Below, piece by piece: positions 1,534-32,168 of a stretch of 64,000 bases of DNA (positions are counted from its first letter, which is position 1; the number at the start of each line of letters is the position of its first letter). This DNA comes from a plasmid. The stretch lies in sequence record NZ_CP044066.1; one strand, written 5' to 3'. Both the position numbers and the translations under genes were made by a program. The notes beneath the pieces are model-generated. The model was not told where the DNA came from. It saw only the letters and a program-made list of their open reading frames with translations, and made no database searches.

Positions 1534-1611
1534 GCACTCCTGAAAAATGACGGAGTGCGACCCGGACGGGCGGCACCCGTCTGGGTAAGGGAAAGGGAAT
1601 AGATACTTCGG

Positions 1612-1635
1612 GGTCGATGCGTCAGAGACGCGGGT
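1612..1635 (-). repeat. M1 palindromic motif copy 1 (GGTCGATGCGTCagaGACGCGGGT)
   Basis: One of 11 same-orientation copies. About 80 nt upstream of the start of the 1533 gene. Confidence 0.6.
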
Positions 1636-1706
1636 AAAACCAGTTTTCGACAGCCGCGTGGGCTGTCGGAACATGGCTCTGCCAGGTTCAAAGGGTTGGC
1701 GTATGG

Positions 1707-3137
1707 CTACGCAAAGAGATCGTCAGTGAGCCAGTTCATCGCCGGTTCCGCGGCAGCCAGCGAAGGTGCCGCCGAATCCTTCGGTCCGGCGGTACCAGCG
1801 TCGAACTCCATGTCGACCAGACTGGCGACGACAGGCGGGCCAGTGACGACCTGCGCGGCGCGCTCCAACTGCACAGCCACCGCTTGCTCCGGCAATCCGC
1901 CAAGCACCCGATCGGCGATCGACTGTGCGTCTAGCGTCTCGAGCATCGACAGGCCGTCGATCAACGGATTTGCCTCCACGCCCGTCAGCTCACACCAGCG
2001 CGTAAGCTTCTCAGGCAACGTGGCCGCGCGGCTGATGCCTTCCGCACGGCTGCGCACCGCAGGCAGGACGCGCGCTTCCAGCTTGATCTCCGCACTGGCA
2101 CTGAACAGCGCCAGAATGGCGTCGCGATCGACCAGCTGGCGATGCTCCTCGTTGACCGTCCATCGTACCCGCACGAACTTGTCGGCGGCGCCTGCGGCGA
2201 CCTCGGTGAGCTTCACCATGTCTGGCGGACCATCGAAGTCCACGCATAGCGTCTCCCGCGCAGGCGTCTGCACCTGCGTGGCAGCGGCATGGCCAGGACT
2301 GACCTGCCATTGCAGATAGCCCTTCGCACCGATCTCGCCATAGTGGAAGCGCCCGATAGAACCCGGATACGCGACCACCCTGCCCTCACGCTCCCATTGC
2401 TGCGCGCGATGGATGTGGCCGAGCATAAATGCATCGCAGTCTGCGTCGAAGAGCGCACCAATGGTGAACTCGTGATCGAAGCCCGCCATTGGTACGCCAT
2501 GCTCGGTCTGGCAGCCGTTGACGGTGCCATGCGAGACCCCGATGGTGCGCACACCATGTGCCCGCCATAGACGATTGATGGCACCGGCGGCCCCAAGGTA
2601 GTCAGCCAGGTGATCGCCCACCGCTGTTGCTGCACTGGCGACGCCGGCAGCAGCTGCAAGCACCGCCTTGTTGACCGTAGGCACGCAGGTGAACACGACA
2701 TCGGGCGTGCCGCGCAGCGCAAGCAGGACTTCGATCTCCTCGGGAGCAAAGACGGCCCCATCCGACGGCACGAACTGCCCGTCGCAAAGCGCAACCTGAT
2801 GGATCCTATCCGCGACATACACGGGGTGTTGCGATCCGATCAGTCGGAATAGATCCAGCGTCCCGGGAGGTTCGTGACTGAACGTACCCTGCAGCATGAG
2901 TACCGGCATGTGCGCGGTCAGTTGGTGAATGCGCCGCGCGAGCGCCGAAAGCGCGGGCGTGTGAGCGTCGAGACGGTGATCGGTCGAATCGCCCGACACC
3001 ACACCGACGTGGCAACCGGCATCGATCGCGTCGCCGGCGGCGAAGCCGAAGCAGCGGTCAGCCTCGGCCAGGTGGCCCGGCGAATAATGCAAGTCCGAGA
3101 AATGGCCCACGAGCAGGCTCTCGCCTTCTTTGAGCAT
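1707..3137 (-). CDS. SbcD/Mre11-like calcineurin-type metallophosphoesterase (nuclease subunit)
   Basis: Start MLKEGESLLVGHFSDLHYSPG (phosphoesterase motif I) and later GHIHRAQ. SD GGAGG lies before the ATG at 3137. Confidence 0.6.
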   Translation of the reverse strand: MLKEGESLLVGHFSDLHYSPGHLAEADRCFGFAAGDAIDAGCHVGVVSGDSTDHRLDAHTPALSALARRIHQLTAHMPVLMLQGTFSHEPPGTLDLFRLIGSQHPVYVADRIHQVALCDGQFVPSDGAVFAPEEIEVLLALRGTPDVVFTCVPTVNKAVLAAAAGVASAATAVGDHLADYLGAAGAINRLWRAHGVRTIGVSHGTVNGCQTEHGVPMAGFDHEFTIGALFDADCDAFMLGHIHRAQQWEREGRVVAYPGSIGRFHYGEIGAKGYLQWQVSPGHAAATQVQTPARETLCVDFDGPPDMVKLTEVAAGAADKFVRVRWTVNEEHRQLVDRDAILALFSASAEIKLEARVLPAVRSRAEGISRAATLPEKLTRWCELTGVEANPLIDGLSMLETLDAQSIADRVLGGLPEQAVAVQLERAAQVVTGPPVVASLVDMEFDAGTAGPKDSAAPSLAAAEPAMNWLTDDLFA

Positions 3138-3233
3138 GATGTACCTCCAAGGGAATGTGCCGGCATTGCGGCGAGAAAGGAAAAAGGGAAGCCGCATGGC
3201 TTCCCCTGAAGTGCCGGCACGAAGCTGGCGGAA

Positions 3234-4445
3234 TTACATGGAGACGTCTGCCGCGATTGCAGCAACCTGTTCGCGGAACGCGAACGGGTTGGTGAGCGCG
3301 GTGCGCATCTCCTCGAGCAGCGCGCGCACATCGTGATCGCGTTTGGTCCAGCCGCGGCCGAAGCTGGCCACAGCGTAGAGGCGGAGTTGGTCGCGGCCCT
3401 CCTGCGTCGCAAGGCCGAGACGGGCTACGAGATCCTCGAACTGGCTCTGGGTATCCTCATCCTCCGACGTCTCGGCAGGCGTTTGGCCCGACAGCTCTTC
3501 GCTGACGCGATCAGGCTGCGGTGGGTCTTCGTCGGTAGCAAGCGGCGATTCCAATGCCGCCACGGCCTGCGTCGCCAGCTCGAGGGCCGGGGCCGCTCGG
3601 TCAGAGCCGTCGAGAAGCGCGCCGATATCGATCTCAGCGTCCAGCGTGATGAGCCATTGCATCTGGCGCATCGCGTTGCCATTCTCATCGATCCGGCTGA
3701 TCTCGGCTTCCTGCTTCGACATCCAGAACTTGACGCCCACCAGCTTGCCACGTGCCATCGCGACGGTCTGCATGGCGGCATATGCCTTCTGCAGAACGTA
3801 GATGGAGCTTGTAGGCATCTCGATGAGGCCGAGCCCGAGGATGTGCGGGATCGAAAAGTAGAACTTGGCCGACAAATTACACGCCCCCGACTGGTACTGC
3901 GGGCATGCCTGCGGATCGCAGAGGCCGTCCGGGATGTGGTCATCCTGACGCAGGATGATCGTGCGGCCGCCAAACATTCGTCGGGCCCGGCTGGCGCGCT
4001 CGTCGCGCACTGGCGGCGCGTAGCGCTTGCAGTACCGCCGGCCATCGCTGCCGTACTCGGAGAAGTACTGGCGTCCGCTTGCGGTCCACGCAACGAGCTG
4101 GTTGGGCATGTTGCTCAGCCAGTCGTCGAAAGCGAAGATCACAGGAAAGCGCCACAGCCGATGACCCTGGCCGTCTCCACGGTCTTCACCGTAGCGCTGC
4201 ACGATGTCTTCTGCAACTGCCGGGTTCGCGAAGTCCGAACCGCGGCATGTGAACCACGGAACGTTCTTGGGATAAAGCGCGTTCTTGATTCCGGTGGCGC
4301 GCTGAATCTCAGTACCGATGTGCTCGAACGATTTGCCCTGCGCGAGCAGCGCGTCATGAATGGCAACGGCTTTGGCATTCTCGCGCGCAGTCTTGGTAAG
4401 TACCTTAATTCCAGGGCGAATGGTGCCGATGATTGGCGGCCGCAT
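3234..4445 (-). CDS. hypothetical protein (~404 aa)
   Basis: Long ORF with high GC3 and no family recognised. The start Met is uncertain (4445 or 4508). Confidence 0.45.
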   Translation of the reverse strand: MRPPIIGTIRPGIKVLTKTARENAKAVAIHDALLAQGKSFEHIGTEIQRATGIKNALYPKNVPWFTCRGSDFANPAVAEDIVQRYGEDRGDGQGHRLWRFPVIFAFDDWLSNMPNQLVAWTASGRQYFSEYGSDGRRYCKRYAPPVRDERASRARRMFGGRTIILRQDDHIPDGLCDPQACPQYQSGACNLSAKFYFSIPHILGLGLIEMPTSSIYVLQKAYAAMQTVAMARGKLVGVKFWMSKQEAEISRIDENGNAMRQMQWLITLDAEIDIGALLDGSDRAAPALELATQAVAALESPLATDEDPPQPDRVSEELSGQTPAETSEDEDTQSQFEDLVARLGLATQEGRDQLRLYAVASFGRGWTKRDHDVRALLEEMRTALTNPFAFREQVAAIAADVSM

Positions 4446-31158: not shown

Positions 31159-31299
31159 CATTTCGCCCACCCACGCAGAAACGGGTACGCTGCGGTGCCG
31201 GGGCAAGCCATCGGCGGATGTGTGTGGGGCATTTCGATCAGCTTTTTGGCCGGAGAAACGCCCCACCGGGACGTATCCCGGCAGGGTTAAAGAATTGGT

Positions 31300-31779
31300 T
31301 CAGTGCAGACGGTAAGCCGTCGTGACAGGCGTGAACCCCATGGCCCACCATTGGGCGATGGGATGGTTGGGAAACTGCGGGATCTGCCCGCTCCGGAACA
31401 CGTCCGGTACGAAGGCGAGTGCTTCGGGACGGACCATCACGGTCGCCCGCCATTTCGCCTGAAGCTCGAGCCAGGTGAGTTCGGCGCGCGCGATGTGGTC
31501 CCACTGCATCGGAAGCATTGCCTCGTCGAAGCGCTTCGCGCCCTCGGCCGTCATGACGGCCACCACTTCGTGGTAGCGCCCGAGTTCATGCGGAAAGCCG
31601 CAACGAACAAATCGGAGTTCCGCCGGATCGGGATTACCGAAGATTCGCTGCAACTGCCGGATGTACACGGCACACTCGCGCCGCGATCGTTCGCTGTAGT
31701 CGTCGTGGCCCACCTGCGCGCACGGCTCTTCCGCGGGCACGGGGCCGACTTCGATGCGGGTAGTTCTGGGGTAAGACAT
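31300..31779 (-). CDS. hypothetical protein (paralog A, ~160 aa)
   Basis: Shares ELRFVRCGFPHELGRYHEVVAV / EAMLPMQWDHIARAE blocks with the 32227..32742 product. Confidence 0.5.
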   Translation of the reverse strand: MSYPRTTRIEVGPVPAEEPCAQVGHDDYSERSRRECAVYIRQLQRIFGNPDPAELRFVRCGFPHELGRYHEVVAVMTAEGAKRFDEAMLPMQWDHIARAELTWLELQAKWRATVMVRPEALAFVPDVFRSGQIPQFPNHPIAQWWAMGFTPVTTAYRLH

Positions 31780-31878
31780 GTTGCGTTTCCTTTGTGGATA
31801 TGGGAAACGCCCCAACCGGGAGGTTTCCCGGTGAGGAGGAGCCGCGCGAGCCCGATGAAGGACTGCGCGCGGCGATGC

Positions 31879-32082
31879 TCAGGCCAGATGGCCAGAGAGA
31901 TGCGAGAACTTCGACAACACCCAGGCGGCGGCAACCACAAGGACGGCCGTTGCGAGAGAGGTCAGTTGGAAGTACAGCAGTGCGAGGCTCGCCGTCGTGA
32001 CGATGAAGAACAATGCGGCGAACAGGATCACGACCAACGCAACAACGGCGATGGCGGTCTCACGGGTCTCGATAACAGGCAT
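31879..32082 (-). CDS. small two-TM membrane protein (67 aa)
   Basis: MPVIETRETAIAVVALVVILFAALFFIV. SD occluded by AUGGCUCC aucuuucuuu GGAGCCAU. Confidence 0.4.
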   Translation of the reverse strand: MPVIETRETAIAVVALVVILFAALFFIVTTASLALLYFQLTSLATAVLVVAAAWVLSKFSHLSGHLA

Positions 32083-32168
32083 GATGGCTCCAAAGAAAGA
32101 TGGAGCCATGACCCATAGGGGACAAAGCCCCAATGGGTGGAAAAACAAGATGGCCGGTACGCCGGCGA

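Follow-up and report, generated by a model that had tools for sequence, protein, structure and literature searches.

A hairpin coupled to a Shine-Dalgarno-sequestering stem-loop heads cistrons of a Burkholderiaceae plasmid block and may gate their translation

The window analysed here, a stretch of 64,000 nucleotides of sequence record NZ_CP044066.1, belongs to a pMOL28/pHG1-type Cupriavidus megaplasmid backbone with its ParB-PRTRC-SbcD block. The initial annotation had noticed twelve GC-rich hairpins and proposed that they form the middle part (M2) of a three-part leader, between a 5' element (M1) and a hairpin at the Shine-Dalgarno sequence (SD; M3). This observation was confirmed in part: all twelve intervals carry a GC-rich hairpin of the form CCC..GGG-loop-CCC..GGG, and all twelve lie on the minus strand, the sense strand of the downstream genes, but the constant place behind M1 did not hold. 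The constant partnership is that of a pyrimidine tract, M2 and M3, in the order tract, M2, 0-6 nt, M3, 3-9 nt and AUG. The tract is single-stranded, U/C-rich and almost free of G. M2 is 24-29 nt long with a stability of -10 to -21 kcal/mol, and its conservation is limited to the C and G runs; no sign of a ligand-binding aptamer was seen. M3 pairs the SD, located in its 3' arm just before the AUG, with an anti-SD strand; its GC-rich stems (-8 to -16 kcal/mol) are perfectly paired and lack the weak pairs characteristic of RNA thermometers. Tract, M2 and M3 thus make up a translation-initiation module that is also placed between cistrons, and this module heads at least ten cistrons of one unidirectional block comprising a methylase, ParB, PRTRC and small proteins and the SbcD region. 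No ORF reads through M2, and no U-tract lies directly 3' of it, in agreement with the earlier view that it is not a canonical terminator. The example sequence given previously had mixed the arms of two strands; the true sense sequence at site 10893 is CCCAAUCGGGG-CACGU-CCCCGGAUGGG.

At ten of the twelve sites, the ATG of a gene encoding 67-560 aa follows 20-31 nt after the end of the hairpin, and here the reported association with start codons stands. All following features are on the minus strand, and the M3 intervals include the start codon. Tract and M2 at 1558..1600 (M2 1561-1585; 33.6 bits and E 2e-5 with the covariance model R1, see below; fold z -5.1) and M3 GCACUCC..GGAGUGC (1528..1560) precede a 171-aa gene (ATG 1530). 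Upstream of a 520-aa gene (ATG 10870), the tract and M2 occupy 10892..10934 (M2 10894-10920; R1 39.2 bits), 17 nt past the upstream stop, and M3 is GUGCUCC..GGAGCCAC (10868..10892). The 131-aa gene with ATG 11333 has M3 GACUCC..GGAGU (11331..11359) and tract and M2 at 11358..11400 (M2 11360-11385), with a terminator-like hairpin before them (11399-11422). The weakest copy, 12451..12496 (M2 12454-12482; R1 21.4 bits, E 0.012), was missed by the second-generation model R2 at E<=0.05; it is joined by M3 GGGUGUCC..GGACACCC (12420..12453) in front of a 127-aa gene (ATG 12422). Next come 13145..13187 (M2 13149-13176; fold z -5.3) and M3 UGGCC..GGCCA with a U-rich loop (13117..13148) at a slyB-like, lipoprotein-like gene of 157 aa (ATG 13119), and 13756..13798 (M2 13758-13784), 20 nt past the upstream stop codon, with M3 AGUGCUCC..GGAGCACU (13724..13757) at a DUF3085 gene (ATG 13726). 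The copy at 14541..14583 (M2 14545-14569; fold z -5.2) has three sense-strand G.U pairs and is followed by M3 GUGCUCC-ACUUUUUUU-GGAGCAC (14513..14544) and a 236-aa gene (ATG 14515). In the leader of PRTRC ParB (ATG 20554), tract and M2 span 20586..20630 and M3 GGGUUC..GAACCC spans 20552..20587; of the interval 20575-20615 originally assigned to the hairpin, only 20588-20615 is M2, and the rest is the anti-SD arm of the next hairpin. Two further modules consist of 31808..31850 (M2 31810-31836, matched by R1) with M3 GCGUUUCC..GGAAACGC (31777..31809; 159-aa gene, ATG 31779) and of 32110..32152 (M2 32112-32137; fold z -4.9) with M3 AUGGCUCC..GGAGCCAU (32080..32111; 67-aa gene, ATG 32082). Two sites depart from this pattern: the atypical copy at 9066..9108 (M2 9068-9093) is followed only by a 7-codon ORF (ATG 9035), and the copy at 31258..31300 (M2 31261-31286), 13 nt past the upstream stop codon, by an M3-like hairpin and a 24-codon uORF (ATG 31233; 31162..31260) whose stop overlaps (ATGA) the start of an N6-methylase gene at 31161.

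M1 is separate from the M2/M3 module and represents the 5'-terminal ~27 nt of RNAs transcribed from strong sigma-70 promoters. The claim that M2 always lies between M1 and the SD hairpin did not survive: M1 is present upstream at only seven of the twelve sites (1561, 9068, 12454, 13149, 14545, 20575 and 32112). Four sites without M1 (10893, 13758, 31261 and 31810) lie close behind an upstream stop codon, and the remaining one, 11360, comes after the terminator-like hairpin. In 72 of 108 unique copies there is no M1 within 140 nt of M2, and M1 is also found at the 5' end of the sbcD RNA and of the ssb-primase operon, both devoid of M2; M2 is tied to M3, not to M1. On the minus strand of the window, the ParB promoter TTGAAA-17-TATTCT with M1 GCGUC-caa-GACGC and AUCGACC (20685..20746) has a predicted +1 at A 20711, and its pMOL28 homologue is the experimentally mapped TSS_90669-5 (PMC9045368). 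Two other M1 elements with a -10 box also have homologues with mapped starts in pMOL28: GCGCC-aua-GGCGC plus AUCGAC (14598..14624, box TAAGAT; TSS_84558-5) and GCGUC-uca-GACGC plus AUCGACC (13210..13236, box TACCAT; TSS_83384-5). A variant, GCGC-uacu-GCGC plus AUCGACC, is found at 32169..32195 (box TACTAT). The elements at 1612..1638, 9128..9154 (GCGGC-uuu-GCCGC) and 12506..12532 have no -10 box; the last one is therefore probably internal to a longer transcript, and its pMOL28 homologue has no mapped TSS. Transcript starts at the head of M1 leaders are borne out by published Cappable-seq data: six TSS positions predicted in pMOL28 coincide to the nucleotide with published ones (PMC9045368 supplement), giving 5' UTRs of 109-121 nt, among them 119 nt for parB2, 121 nt for Rmet_6233 and 109 nt for Rmet_6234. 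By TSS read count, the M1-headed leaders rank extremely high, at 28-102 of 5763 (PMC9045368). A three-part leader of ~100-130 nt, as proposed, is thus a fair description of promoter-proximal copies (109-121 nt), but M2 is generally not tied to M1.

The element is real and conserved across the Burkholderiaceae. The covariance model R1, built on the twelve copies and 15 nt of upstream sequence, detected nothing beyond these copies on both strands of the 64-kb window (next best match 14 bits, E 0.54), and in 80 related loci (1.6 Mb) it recovered 158 further matches at E<=0.1, all 158 in gene-sense orientation. With R2, 86 gene-sense matches were found in 931 kb, versus none in the opposite orientation. 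An equivalent block with the module is present in Ralstonia, Paraburkholderia, Caballeronia and Burkholderia. In the related loci, SD and start codon lie 20-39 nt past M2 in 137 of 145 unique copies, with a mode of 29. Where a stop codon precedes M2, the tract that separates the two always measures 13 nt or more. A scatter of REP-like repeats with no relation to genes had been named as the finding that would overturn the proposal. The full 171 kb of pMOL28 gave the opposite picture: 13 of 13 matches fall on a single strand at 67.8-93.7 kb, each just upstream of an adjoining annotated CDS, and this confinement to one 26-kb block argues that M2 is not REP-like. Neither the hairpin nor its leader has a match in Rfam.

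Comparative analysis supports the M2 helix as an RNA structure. Its covariation score is 0.269 as compared to 0.131+-0.010 in shuffled alignments (0 of 500 reach it), slid registers score at most 0.128, and doubly changed cells number 106 versus 27.8. Moreover, the stem contains 81 G.U but only 15 A.C pairs, an excess that points to the sense RNA. M2 is the structured, conserved and strand-specific leader element that the initial annotation had seen in it; taken as a whole, the earlier interpretation is partly supported. The downstream M3 sequesters the SD: its unpaired probability is 0.12 in module genes versus 0.39 in 49 other genes of the window (p 0.003). New in this work is a complementarity between M2 and the anti-SD strand. 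If the upper 5' arm and loop of M2 are termed A, its 3' arm B, the anti-SD C and the SD D, the matched A:C pairing in 27 gene families amounts to -13.2 kcal/mol versus -8.1+-0.5 kcal/mol for permuted partners (z -10), a value that none of 1000-2000 permutations reached; the signal for M3 itself is weaker (-11.0 versus -6.9 kcal/mol). Among the other segment pairs of the leader, none was specific besides A:C and M3, and for strand B no partner in cis was found. The variable bases of A and C covary across families (GGGGCAC/GUGCUCC, GGGAAAC/GUUUCC, GGGCCA/UGGCCC, GGGCAACC/GGUUGCCC and GGGACAC/GUGUCC). The A:C helix has on average 8.3 bp, 3.5 from the loop and 4.8 from the stem of M2, and shares 5.7 nucleotides of strand C with M3. 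M2+M3 and A:C are mutually exclusive, and in the folding models their energies often differ little: compared with M2+M3, the median price of a forced A:C helix is +5.2 kcal/mol, with a cost of 2 kcal/mol or less in 40% of the modules and of zero or less in 28%, and at site 10893 an A:C-type helix is the unconstrained MFE structure.

M2 is best read as a cis-acting hairpin of the gene-sense transcript that opens the fixed translation-initiation module, and it is an even question, in our judgement, whether it acts as the lock on an 'anti-anti-SD' strand in a three-strand switch that would gate translation of each cistron. Strand A (GGGnnnn) is a near copy of the SD strand and can therefore equal or surpass D as a partner of C. 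While B holds A, C would stay on D and the SD would be closed; if M2 were opened, A could capture C and the SD would be released. We infer that such an exchange takes place in vivo, with A:C as the ON state, and that the most likely trigger is a single-strand binder docking at the pyrimidine tract and at the C-rich M2 base, possibly the 30S subunit with ribosomal protein S1 or a plasmid-encoded factor. Against the switch, M2+M3 is thermodynamically favoured in most modules and the first to form during transcription, and the A:C state therefore needs an outside driver. The lack of a cis partner for B and of an ORF through M2 also speaks against it, and a scan of 50 window ORFs turned up no RNA-binding protein of the CsrA, Hfq, FinO/ProQ or Csp families. 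Moreover, other segments keep the SD paired 81% of the time in constrained A:C folds, so that an open SD is not guaranteed.

Other explanations have to be weighed against the lock model. M2 might be a passive stabiliser or insulator: cleavage of the tract by an RNase E-type enzyme would separate the cistrons and leave M2 as a protective 5' stem-loop, which would also shield each ribosome-binding region from upstream sequence without any switching. Protection of mRNAs against 5'-end-dependent RNase E by stem-loops at the 5' end is well established, and the high stability of M2, the single-stranded, U-rich and G-free tract directly 5' of it and the position of junction modules 13-28 nt past stop codons all fit. 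We nevertheless regard this as unlikely, as it leaves the specific, covarying complementarity to the anti-SD unexplained, and promoter-proximal copies carry tract and M2 despite a primary 5' end ~60-100 nt upstream. Alternatively, M2 may be the antiterminator of a transcription attenuator, in which A:C and the U-rich M3 loop would form an intrinsic terminator, M2 would prevent its formation and the SD hairpin would be secondary. For the promoter-proximal copies such an output fits at least as well: among the modules with M1, 20 of 36 have a U-tract (>=5 U in 8 nt) directly after strand C, versus 7 of 72 among those without, hairpins in the spacer from M1 to M2 were likewise called terminator-like, and the high TSS ranks could reflect abundant short attenuated RNAs. 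However, two thirds of the modules lack the U-tract and nevertheless retain the A:C complementarity, a loop of 12-16 nt would make A:C a poor intrinsic terminator, and the U-rich loops could equally be landing pads for S1. Since M2 is stronger and first to form, transcription would by default read through and leave the SD closed, and attenuation is distinctly unlikely.

Still somewhat more doubtful is a role of M2 as the operator of a plasmid-encoded, RNA-binding translational repressor, in the manner of phage coat protein operators; its binding to the hairpin, with no strand exchange, would control the adjacent start. If true, it would imply zygotic induction after transfer. One copy per controlled cistron, the confinement to one plasmid block with many genes of unknown function, and the conserved shape with invariant C and G runs at base and top would suit an operator; however, the highly variable loop and middle stem offer a protein little sequence to bind specifically, the scan of window ORFs revealed no known RNA-binding domain, and an operator alone does not explain A:C. 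Finally, it is very improbable that M2 is not an mRNA element at all, but a REP-like palindrome, an intrinsic terminator or a single-stranded DNA structure such as a primosome site or a leading-region promoter. M2 is a GC-rich palindrome, and its intergenic position on a conjugative plasmid, in a block with establishment-type genes (orphan methylase, ParB, SbcD-like nuclease), may suggest this, but the single orientation, the fixed distance to start codons, the confinement to 26 kb of a 171-kb plasmid and the missing U-tract largely refute the REP and terminator versions. Moreover, the G.U pairs are on the sense strand, the strand that also pairs the SD, and the promoters in front of M1 are of the ordinary double-stranded sigma-70 type and work in vegetative cells.

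Several known systems resemble M2 and its module in part. The only curated RNA family in the window, the sbcD RNA (Rfam RF01757), shares with the M2 leaders the replicon family, strand, promoter type and M1 as 5' hairpin (5260-5286, minus strand; pMOL28 TSS_75119-5), but it is a 155-nt multi-stem RNA without the M2/M3 module or an adjacent start codon and has no sequence relation to M2. Frpo-type single-stranded DNA promoters and the conAn antitermination system of pLS20 belong to establishment or leading regions and, like M2, are repeated non-coding elements that coordinate a unidirectional establishment-type gene block (PMC9849209, PMC6294495). They differ in that transcription at M1 comes from double-stranded sigma-70 promoters, whose TSSs were mapped in resident cells, and M2 lies beside start codons, carries no promoter boxes and is not a terminator. 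REP/BIME elements are likewise short, GC-rich imperfect palindromes repeated in intergenic DNA, but M2 occurs 158:0 in one orientation, at a fixed spacing to start codons, in one block and coupled to an SD hairpin. With RNA thermometers (ROSE, fourU) and simple SD-sequestering hairpins, M3 shares the position of the SD in the 3' arm of a short hairpin and its low accessibility; in contrast to these systems, its stems are perfect and GC-rich and a second, covarying competitor hairpin is always attached. The expression platforms of translational riboswitches and attenuators follow the same four-strand logic, A:B plus C:D versus A:C with D as the SD, but the M2 module has neither aptamer nor leader peptide nor Rfam match. 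In the repZ/repA mRNAs of IncI-alpha, IncB and IncL/M plasmids, the loop of an upstream hairpin pairs beside an SD sequestered downstream and forms an activating pseudoknot. There, a single rep gene is controlled, whereas the M2 device precedes at least ten unrelated genes; no antisense RNA is evident at the M2 module, since upstream ORFs terminate 13 nt or more ahead of M2, no leader peptide opens the SD hairpin of the module, and its pairing takes ~5 stem bases besides the loop. What these repZ/repA leaders have in common with M2 is that they are plasmid-borne, that an upstream loop is complementary to the strand closing the SD, and that the conformations are mutually exclusive.

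The GC-rich hairpin M2, for which the initial annotation had listed 12 copies in the window, was found at 12 of 12 intervals when both strands were read, and this observation was largely right. All 12 hairpins make sense on the minus strand, the strand of the genes, and there they are embedded in a constant order: a pyrimidine-rich tract (e. g. UUCCCUUUCCCUUA), M2 of the form CCC(A)nn(C)GGG, 3-7 nt loop, CCC(G)nnGGG, then 0-6 nt, a second hairpin (M3), 3-6 nt and the ATG. M3 carries the Shine-Dalgarno (SD) sequence in its 3' arm and an anti-SD sequence in its 5' arm, as in GUGCUCC-ACUUUUUUU-GGAGCAC. 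RNA folding returned M2 plus M3 as the minimum free energy (MFE) structure of the 12 segments in most cases, with z scores of -1.75 to -5.3 relative to dinucleotide shuffles. The hairpin ends 20-31 nt upstream of the ATG in ten of the 12 copies, and the genes encode proteins of 67-560 aa; site 9068 is followed only by a 7-codon ORF, and site 31261 by a uORF of 24 codons whose stop codon shares the sequence ATGA with the start of an N6-methylase gene.

The SD (GGAG or GGA) is paired by M3 in ten of the 12 window copies, and its unpaired probability is 0.12 in the module genes as compared to 0.39 in 49 other genes of the window (p 0.003, with rough start calls). Pairing of the SD in a local hairpin just before the start codon, as expected of an SD-sequestering translational control element, is therefore what we observe. 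The energies of M3, computed at 37 °C only, range from -8 to -16 kcal/mol and would argue against easy thermal melting of the kind seen in an RNA thermometer. In the 15 nt upstream of M2, eight positions (alignment columns 5-12) are nearly free of G, with 85-96% pyrimidines, and the stop codon of a nearby upstream gene lies 13-28 nt from M2, with 13 nt as the minimum distance. The uORF at 31162-31233 (-), which encodes MPHTHPPMACPGTAAYPFLRGWAK, lies behind an M2/M3 module, and its stop codon overlaps the start of the orphan N6-methylase gene. Since its motif ..AYPFLR.. is kept in three loci fetched around ParB homologues (L002, L004, L014), the overlap suggests that the methylase may be translationally coupled to a leader peptide.

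Two conjugative plasmids typed MOBH and MPF_T, pMOL28 of C. metallidurans CH34 and pHG1 of C. necator H16, are collinear with the window, whose ParB protein is 98% identical to a Cupriavidus plantarum protein. The PRTRC cassette at 14712-20554 (-) (compare locus L001) encodes a ParB-family protein, proteins E, F, B and A, and ThiF; Pfam searches on an identical contig returned Prok_Ub, Prok-E2 and JAB, i. e. a ubiquitin-like protein with E1 (ThiF), E2-like and JAB components. Its ParB has 560 aa with many invariant cysteines, the other components follow downstream, and only ParB has a module, the remaining genes being tightly packed. The window also encodes a TIGR03299/DUF932 protein, an SbcD-like phosphoesterase, a Gp3-like protein, the orphan N6-methylase, a UvrD helicase, SSB, a primase, a ParM-like actin, an FlhC-family regulator and type IV pilus proteins. 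The FlhC-family regulator and its upstream partner are located at 52218-54628 (+), as they are at 138.5-140.9 kb of pMOL28. Together with a faint AcaB-like match at 5419-6051 (+) (E 0.009, below the cut-off), this pair raises the possibility of an activation cascade of the AcaB/AcaCD type known from IncC and SXT elements. The region 21600-30200, with genes on both strands including one for a MocR/PdxR-type regulator, contains no modules and separates the methylase end of the module block (30.2-32.2 kb) from ParB (20.6 kb); it is missing at this position in pMOL28 and is probably a cargo insertion.

Because bulges put the copies out of register, RNAalifold gave only a weak consensus of six pairs on a MAFFT alignment of the 12 paralogues; the M2 structure was therefore imposed by hand and the copies were realigned with Infernal. 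A generic scan for two hairpins upstream of a start codon returned hundreds of false positives in this DNA of 62% GC, and covariance models were used instead. The first model (R1), built from the 12 copies plus the 15-nt upstream tract, detected no further site on either strand of the window (next best: 14 bits, E 0.54). We then searched 80 loci around ParB homologues (1.6 Mb) from Cupriavidus, Ralstonia, Paraburkholderia, Caballeronia, Burkholderia, Pararobbsia and Rugamonas, and obtained 158 matches at E<=0.1, 158:0 in favour of the ParB-sense strand. A second model rebuilt from these matches (R2) gave 86 matches at E<=0.05 in 931 kb, 86:0 gene-sense, and none in the Rugamonas locus. The module is conserved across six genera of the Burkholderiaceae. 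An SD-preceded start codon of an ORF of at least 40 aa lies 20-39 nt downstream of the hairpin (mode 29) in 137 of the 145 unique matches, and several of the remaining eight precede short ORFs, among them the conserved 24-codon methylase uORF (four loci) and the 7-codon ORF of the window. In the complete pMOL28 (171 kb), 13 of 13 R1 matches (E<=1) are located at 67.8-93.7 kb on one strand and directly upstream of annotated coding sequences, and R2 found no match elsewhere on this plasmid. The initial annotation had proposed that scatter without relation to genes would mark the hairpins as REP-like. Since the pMOL28 matches are confined to one region, lie on one strand and are each placed 5' of a gene, this is not the case, and we reject a REP/BIME repeat: there is no dispersal over pMOL28 (the scan covered this plasmid), only one orientation was found among all matches of both models, and the distance to the start codon is fixed.

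The Infernal alignment of 126 distinct copies revealed compensatory changes in the 9-pair helix of M2: 83.8% of the pairs are standard ones, as compared to 76.0+-0.6% in shuffles, there are 106 doubly changed cells versus 27.8, and the covariation score is 0.269 versus 0.131+-0.010 (reached in 0 of 500 shuffles; slid registers <=0.128), all values that lean towards the structure because the alignment was fitted to it. The basal CC:GG and the upper G:C pairs are nearly constant, and the pairs between them as well as the loop-closing pair co-vary. G.U pairs outnumber A.C/C.A combinations by 81 to 15, indicating that selection acts on the structure in the sense strand, where M3 also pairs the SD. 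M2 would accordingly be an element of the mRNA.

The two hairpins are linked by a third pairing. The upper 5' arm and loop of M2 (strand A) resemble the SD strand of M3 (strand D), and strand A is therefore complementary to the anti-SD strand (C). In the window, the A/C pairs are GGGGCAC/GUGCUCC (site 14545), GGGUGC/GCACUCC (1561), GGGAAAC/GUUUCC (31810), GGGCCA/UGGCCC (13149), GGGACAC/GUGUCC (12454), GGGAAC/GUUCCC (20575, the ParB leader) and GGGGCU/GGCUCC (32112); families in other loci have GGGCAACC/GGUUGCCC, GGGGCC/GGCCCC and GGGGCAUC/GAUGCUUC. Because the covariance matches had been chosen without regard to strand C, this complementarity can be assessed free of selection bias. Across 108 unique modules, strand A forms a duplex of -13.3 kcal/mol on average with its own strand C, as compared to -9.0 kcal/mol with foreign partners. 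With one representative per downstream-protein family (n=27), the values are -13.2 kcal/mol versus about -8.2+-0.5 kcal/mol after permutation, and none of 2000 permutations was as good. A pair scan over seven segments (40 nt upstream, tract, A, the 3' arm of M2 (B), C, D and early coding sequence) identified only three specific pairs, namely A-B (M2), C-D (M3; -11.0 versus -6.9 permuted, z -8) and A-C (z -10), and no specific cis partner for the tract, the 3' arm of M2, the 40 nt upstream or the early coding sequence. The A:C helix has 8.3 bp on average, of which the M2 loop contributes 3.5 and the M2 stem 4.8, and 5.7 of its strand-C nucleotides also pair in M3; thus, A:C excludes both hairpins. 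Forcing A:C costs a median of +5.2 kcal/mol relative to forced M2 plus M3; A:C is equal or better in 28% of the modules and within 2 kcal/mol in 40%, and at site 10893 it is the unconstrained MFE structure. In the A:C state the SD re-pairs elsewhere in 81% of the cases in silico, which complicates the picture of a switch.

The upstream hairpin M1, which is followed by AUCGACC, is an element separable from M2. The initial annotation had taken M1, M2 and the SD hairpin as one three-part leader. This description holds for promoter-proximal copies and fails for the others: M1 lies upstream in only seven of the 12 window copies, and 72 of the 108 unique modules have no M1 within 140 nt. It is the SD hairpin, not M1, that M2 has as its fixed partner; M1 is also found at the head of the sbcD RNA and of the ssb-primase operon, neither of which has M2. 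In the fetched loci the hairpin plus ATCGA(C) occurs 254 times in sense and 12 times in antisense orientation. Its stem co-varies (GCGTC/GACGC, GCGCT/AGCGC, GCGCC/GGCGC, GCGCA/TGCGC, GCGGC/GCCGC), and four of these variants (GCGTC/GACGC, GCGCC/GGCGC, GCGGC/GCCGC and GCGCA/TGCGC) occur within one replicon; this variation, together with variants that have 4-bp stems and loops of 4-5 nt, disfavours a palindromic operator for a ParB/KorB-like dimer.

A TAnnnT box precedes the M1 stem at -19 to -14 (73, 71 and 75%) with a conserved A at -7 (71%; 221 unique copies), an arrangement that corresponds to the -10 box and start point of a sigma-70 promoter. The ParB promoter of the window reads TTGAAA-17-TATTCT. 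From this geometry, starts were predicted in pMOL28 at 137004, 130858, 90669, 84558, 83384 and 75119, and all six coincide to the exact nucleotide with primary transcription start sites (TSSs) mapped by Cappable-seq on the minus strand (Grosse et al. 2022, PMC9045368, supplementary file 2). The six TSSs have RpoD-type motifs, five strong and one (TSS_75119-5) medium, they rank 28, 899, 34, 102, 39 and 1119 of 5763, and the 5' UTRs have 119 nt for parB2, 109 nt for Rmet_6234 and 121 nt for Rmet_6233 (PMC9045368); that study does not discuss these leaders. Given the -10 geometry and the six matched TSSs, strong primary transcripts carry M1, stem-loop (+8 to +20) and AUCGACC together, close to their 5' end. 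A -10 box is lacking at three M1 copies (1612-1638, 9128-9154 and 12506-12532, all (-)), which are preceded by a hairpin and UUUU(A/C)CCC. The pMOL28 homologues of these copies have no TSS in the data set of PMC9045368, and M1 copies of this kind are therefore probably internal to longer transcripts. M1 is a candidate 5' stabiliser, protein site or antitermination signal. Small CCGG-type spacer hairpins between M1 and M2 (9109-9122, 13190-13207 and 14582-14595 (-)) score as terminator-like together with the tract and could be weak attenuators inside the leaders.

A full-length sbcD RNA (RF01757; 148.8 bits) is located at 4853-5007 (-), about 250 nt downstream of an M1-type promoter (M1 at 5260-5286 (-)); in pMOL28, the homologous TSS_75119-5 maps 316 nt upstream of Rmet_6222. 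Promoter and 5' hairpin of the sbcD RNA thus appear to belong to the same class as those of the leaders. Segments of it complementary to the tract or to M1 were rejected, by eye only, one being in the wrong orientation and the other involving a non-conserved stem base, and a literature search on the sbcD and DUF3085 RNA motifs found nothing. At about 51795-51850 (-), the promoter TTGAGC/TAGGAT is followed by the M1 variant GCGU-ccac-ACGC plus AUCGAU; its leader of about 190 nt has neither M2 nor M3 and heads an operon running from 51621 down to 48119 that ends with ssb and the primase gene. The homologous pMOL28 promoter is TSS_137004-5, rank 28 of 5763.

The module was also compared with known classes of elements. 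At gathering thresholds, Rfam recognized only the sbcD RNA in the whole window, and nothing at E<=5 in positions 1-34000 overlapped any M1, M2 or M3. As the initial annotation had stated, M2 is not an intrinsic (Rho-independent) terminator: it is followed by the anti-SD strand, with no U-tract within 0-2 nt, and no M2 hairpin is among 14 terminator-like sites at 9-21 kb. The invariant columns are only the C and G runs of a stem of 9-10 bp with a variable loop of 3-7 nt, and the conserved ligand-binding core of a riboswitch aptamer is not seen. A Frpo-type ssDNA promoter is at odds with the linear -35/-10 boxes of the M1 promoters, whose TSSs are among the strongest in non-conjugating CH34 cells. 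Finally, a phage origin (N4-like hairpin promoters or a T7-like RNA polymerase) was rejected: the phage DNA search of the window gave no match, there is no ORF for a large RNA polymerase, and the PHROG/NCBIfam matches correspond to the PRTRC/ParB plasmid backbone.

Judged from its complementarities, the module has the anatomy of a strand-exchange switch, in which A:B plus C:D would keep the SD closed and A:C would release strand D. During transcription M2 would be the first helix to form, and it is usually also the stronger one, so that a closed default state is expected and M2 would have to be opened. M2 might be purely passive, as a stabiliser, insulator or processing mark; this is possible as an added function, but on its own it cannot account for the covariation of A with C. 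For the opener, we found neither a cis partner nor a leader ORF that runs across M2, no RNA-binding protein was recognised among the 50 window ORFs scanned, and a ribosome that unzips M2 while reading through from an upstream ORF is rejected by the stop codons at least 13 nt away. The G-free tract (at least 13 nt) together with the adjoining C-rich base of M2 would offer an obvious entry site for a single-strand binder, and we infer that the trigger is most likely loading of 30S/S1 or a plasmid-encoded factor. A U-tract follows strand C in 20 of 36 modules with M1 as compared to seven of 72 without. In these promoter-proximal copies, A:C could thus be a terminator and M2 the antiterminator; the same U-tract may instead serve as a landing pad for S1 where no upstream ribosome arrives.

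Megaplasmids of this family are widespread in the Burkholderiaceae and encode metal resistance, symbiosis and hydrogen lithoautotrophy; among their conserved genes, those of the block (many for small proteins, others for the orphan methylase, the SbcD-like nuclease and the ubiquitin-like PRTRC cassette) are understood least. Its promoters are among the strongest in C. metallidurans CH34 according to the published TSS data (PMC9045368), yet nearly every cistron has a closed ribosome-binding site with a co-varying competitor hairpin, a combination which suggests that a device not represented in Rfam coordinates the translation of genes for plasmid maintenance or establishment. It is tempting to speculate, quite tentatively, that a hitherto undescribed plasmid-wide post-transcriptional regulon exists, in which one portable three-strand switch stands before at least ten unrelated genes of the ParB-PRTRC-methylase-SbcD block of pMOL28/pHG1-type megaplasmids. 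One trans factor, recognising the tract and the M2 base, would flip all copies together, so that translation is released under one condition only, e. g. just after entry into a new host. The block is transcribed at levels near those of ribosomal proteins, and the switch would gate its translation. The module offers a compact putative RNA switch of about 60 nt and a handle for finding its regulator, and tract, M2 and M3 together are an annotation signature by which true start codons and small uORFs can be recognised on these plasmids.

Strand-exchange logic is familiar from the expression platforms of riboswitches and attenuators, and in the repZ/repA pseudoknot of IncI-alpha/IncB plasmids the loop of an upstream hairpin pairs next to a sequestered SD. 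The module resembles the latter in that an upstream strand is complementary to the anti-SD and this pairing and the SD hairpin are mutually exclusive. It differs in that no leader peptide opens the SD hairpin, as upstream ORFs end at least 13 nt before M2, and no antisense RNA was found, a sequence scan having detected no promoter-like site on the opposite strand of the leaders; aptamer, leader peptide and antisense RNA are thus absent from the module or were not found in it. The module is not in Rfam, and the literature searched contains no description of it. It is portable, about 60 nt long and repeated before at least ten unrelated cistrons of one plasmid block, and we rate the combination of tract, M2 and M3 as an undescribed version of an established type of cis-regulatory RNA.
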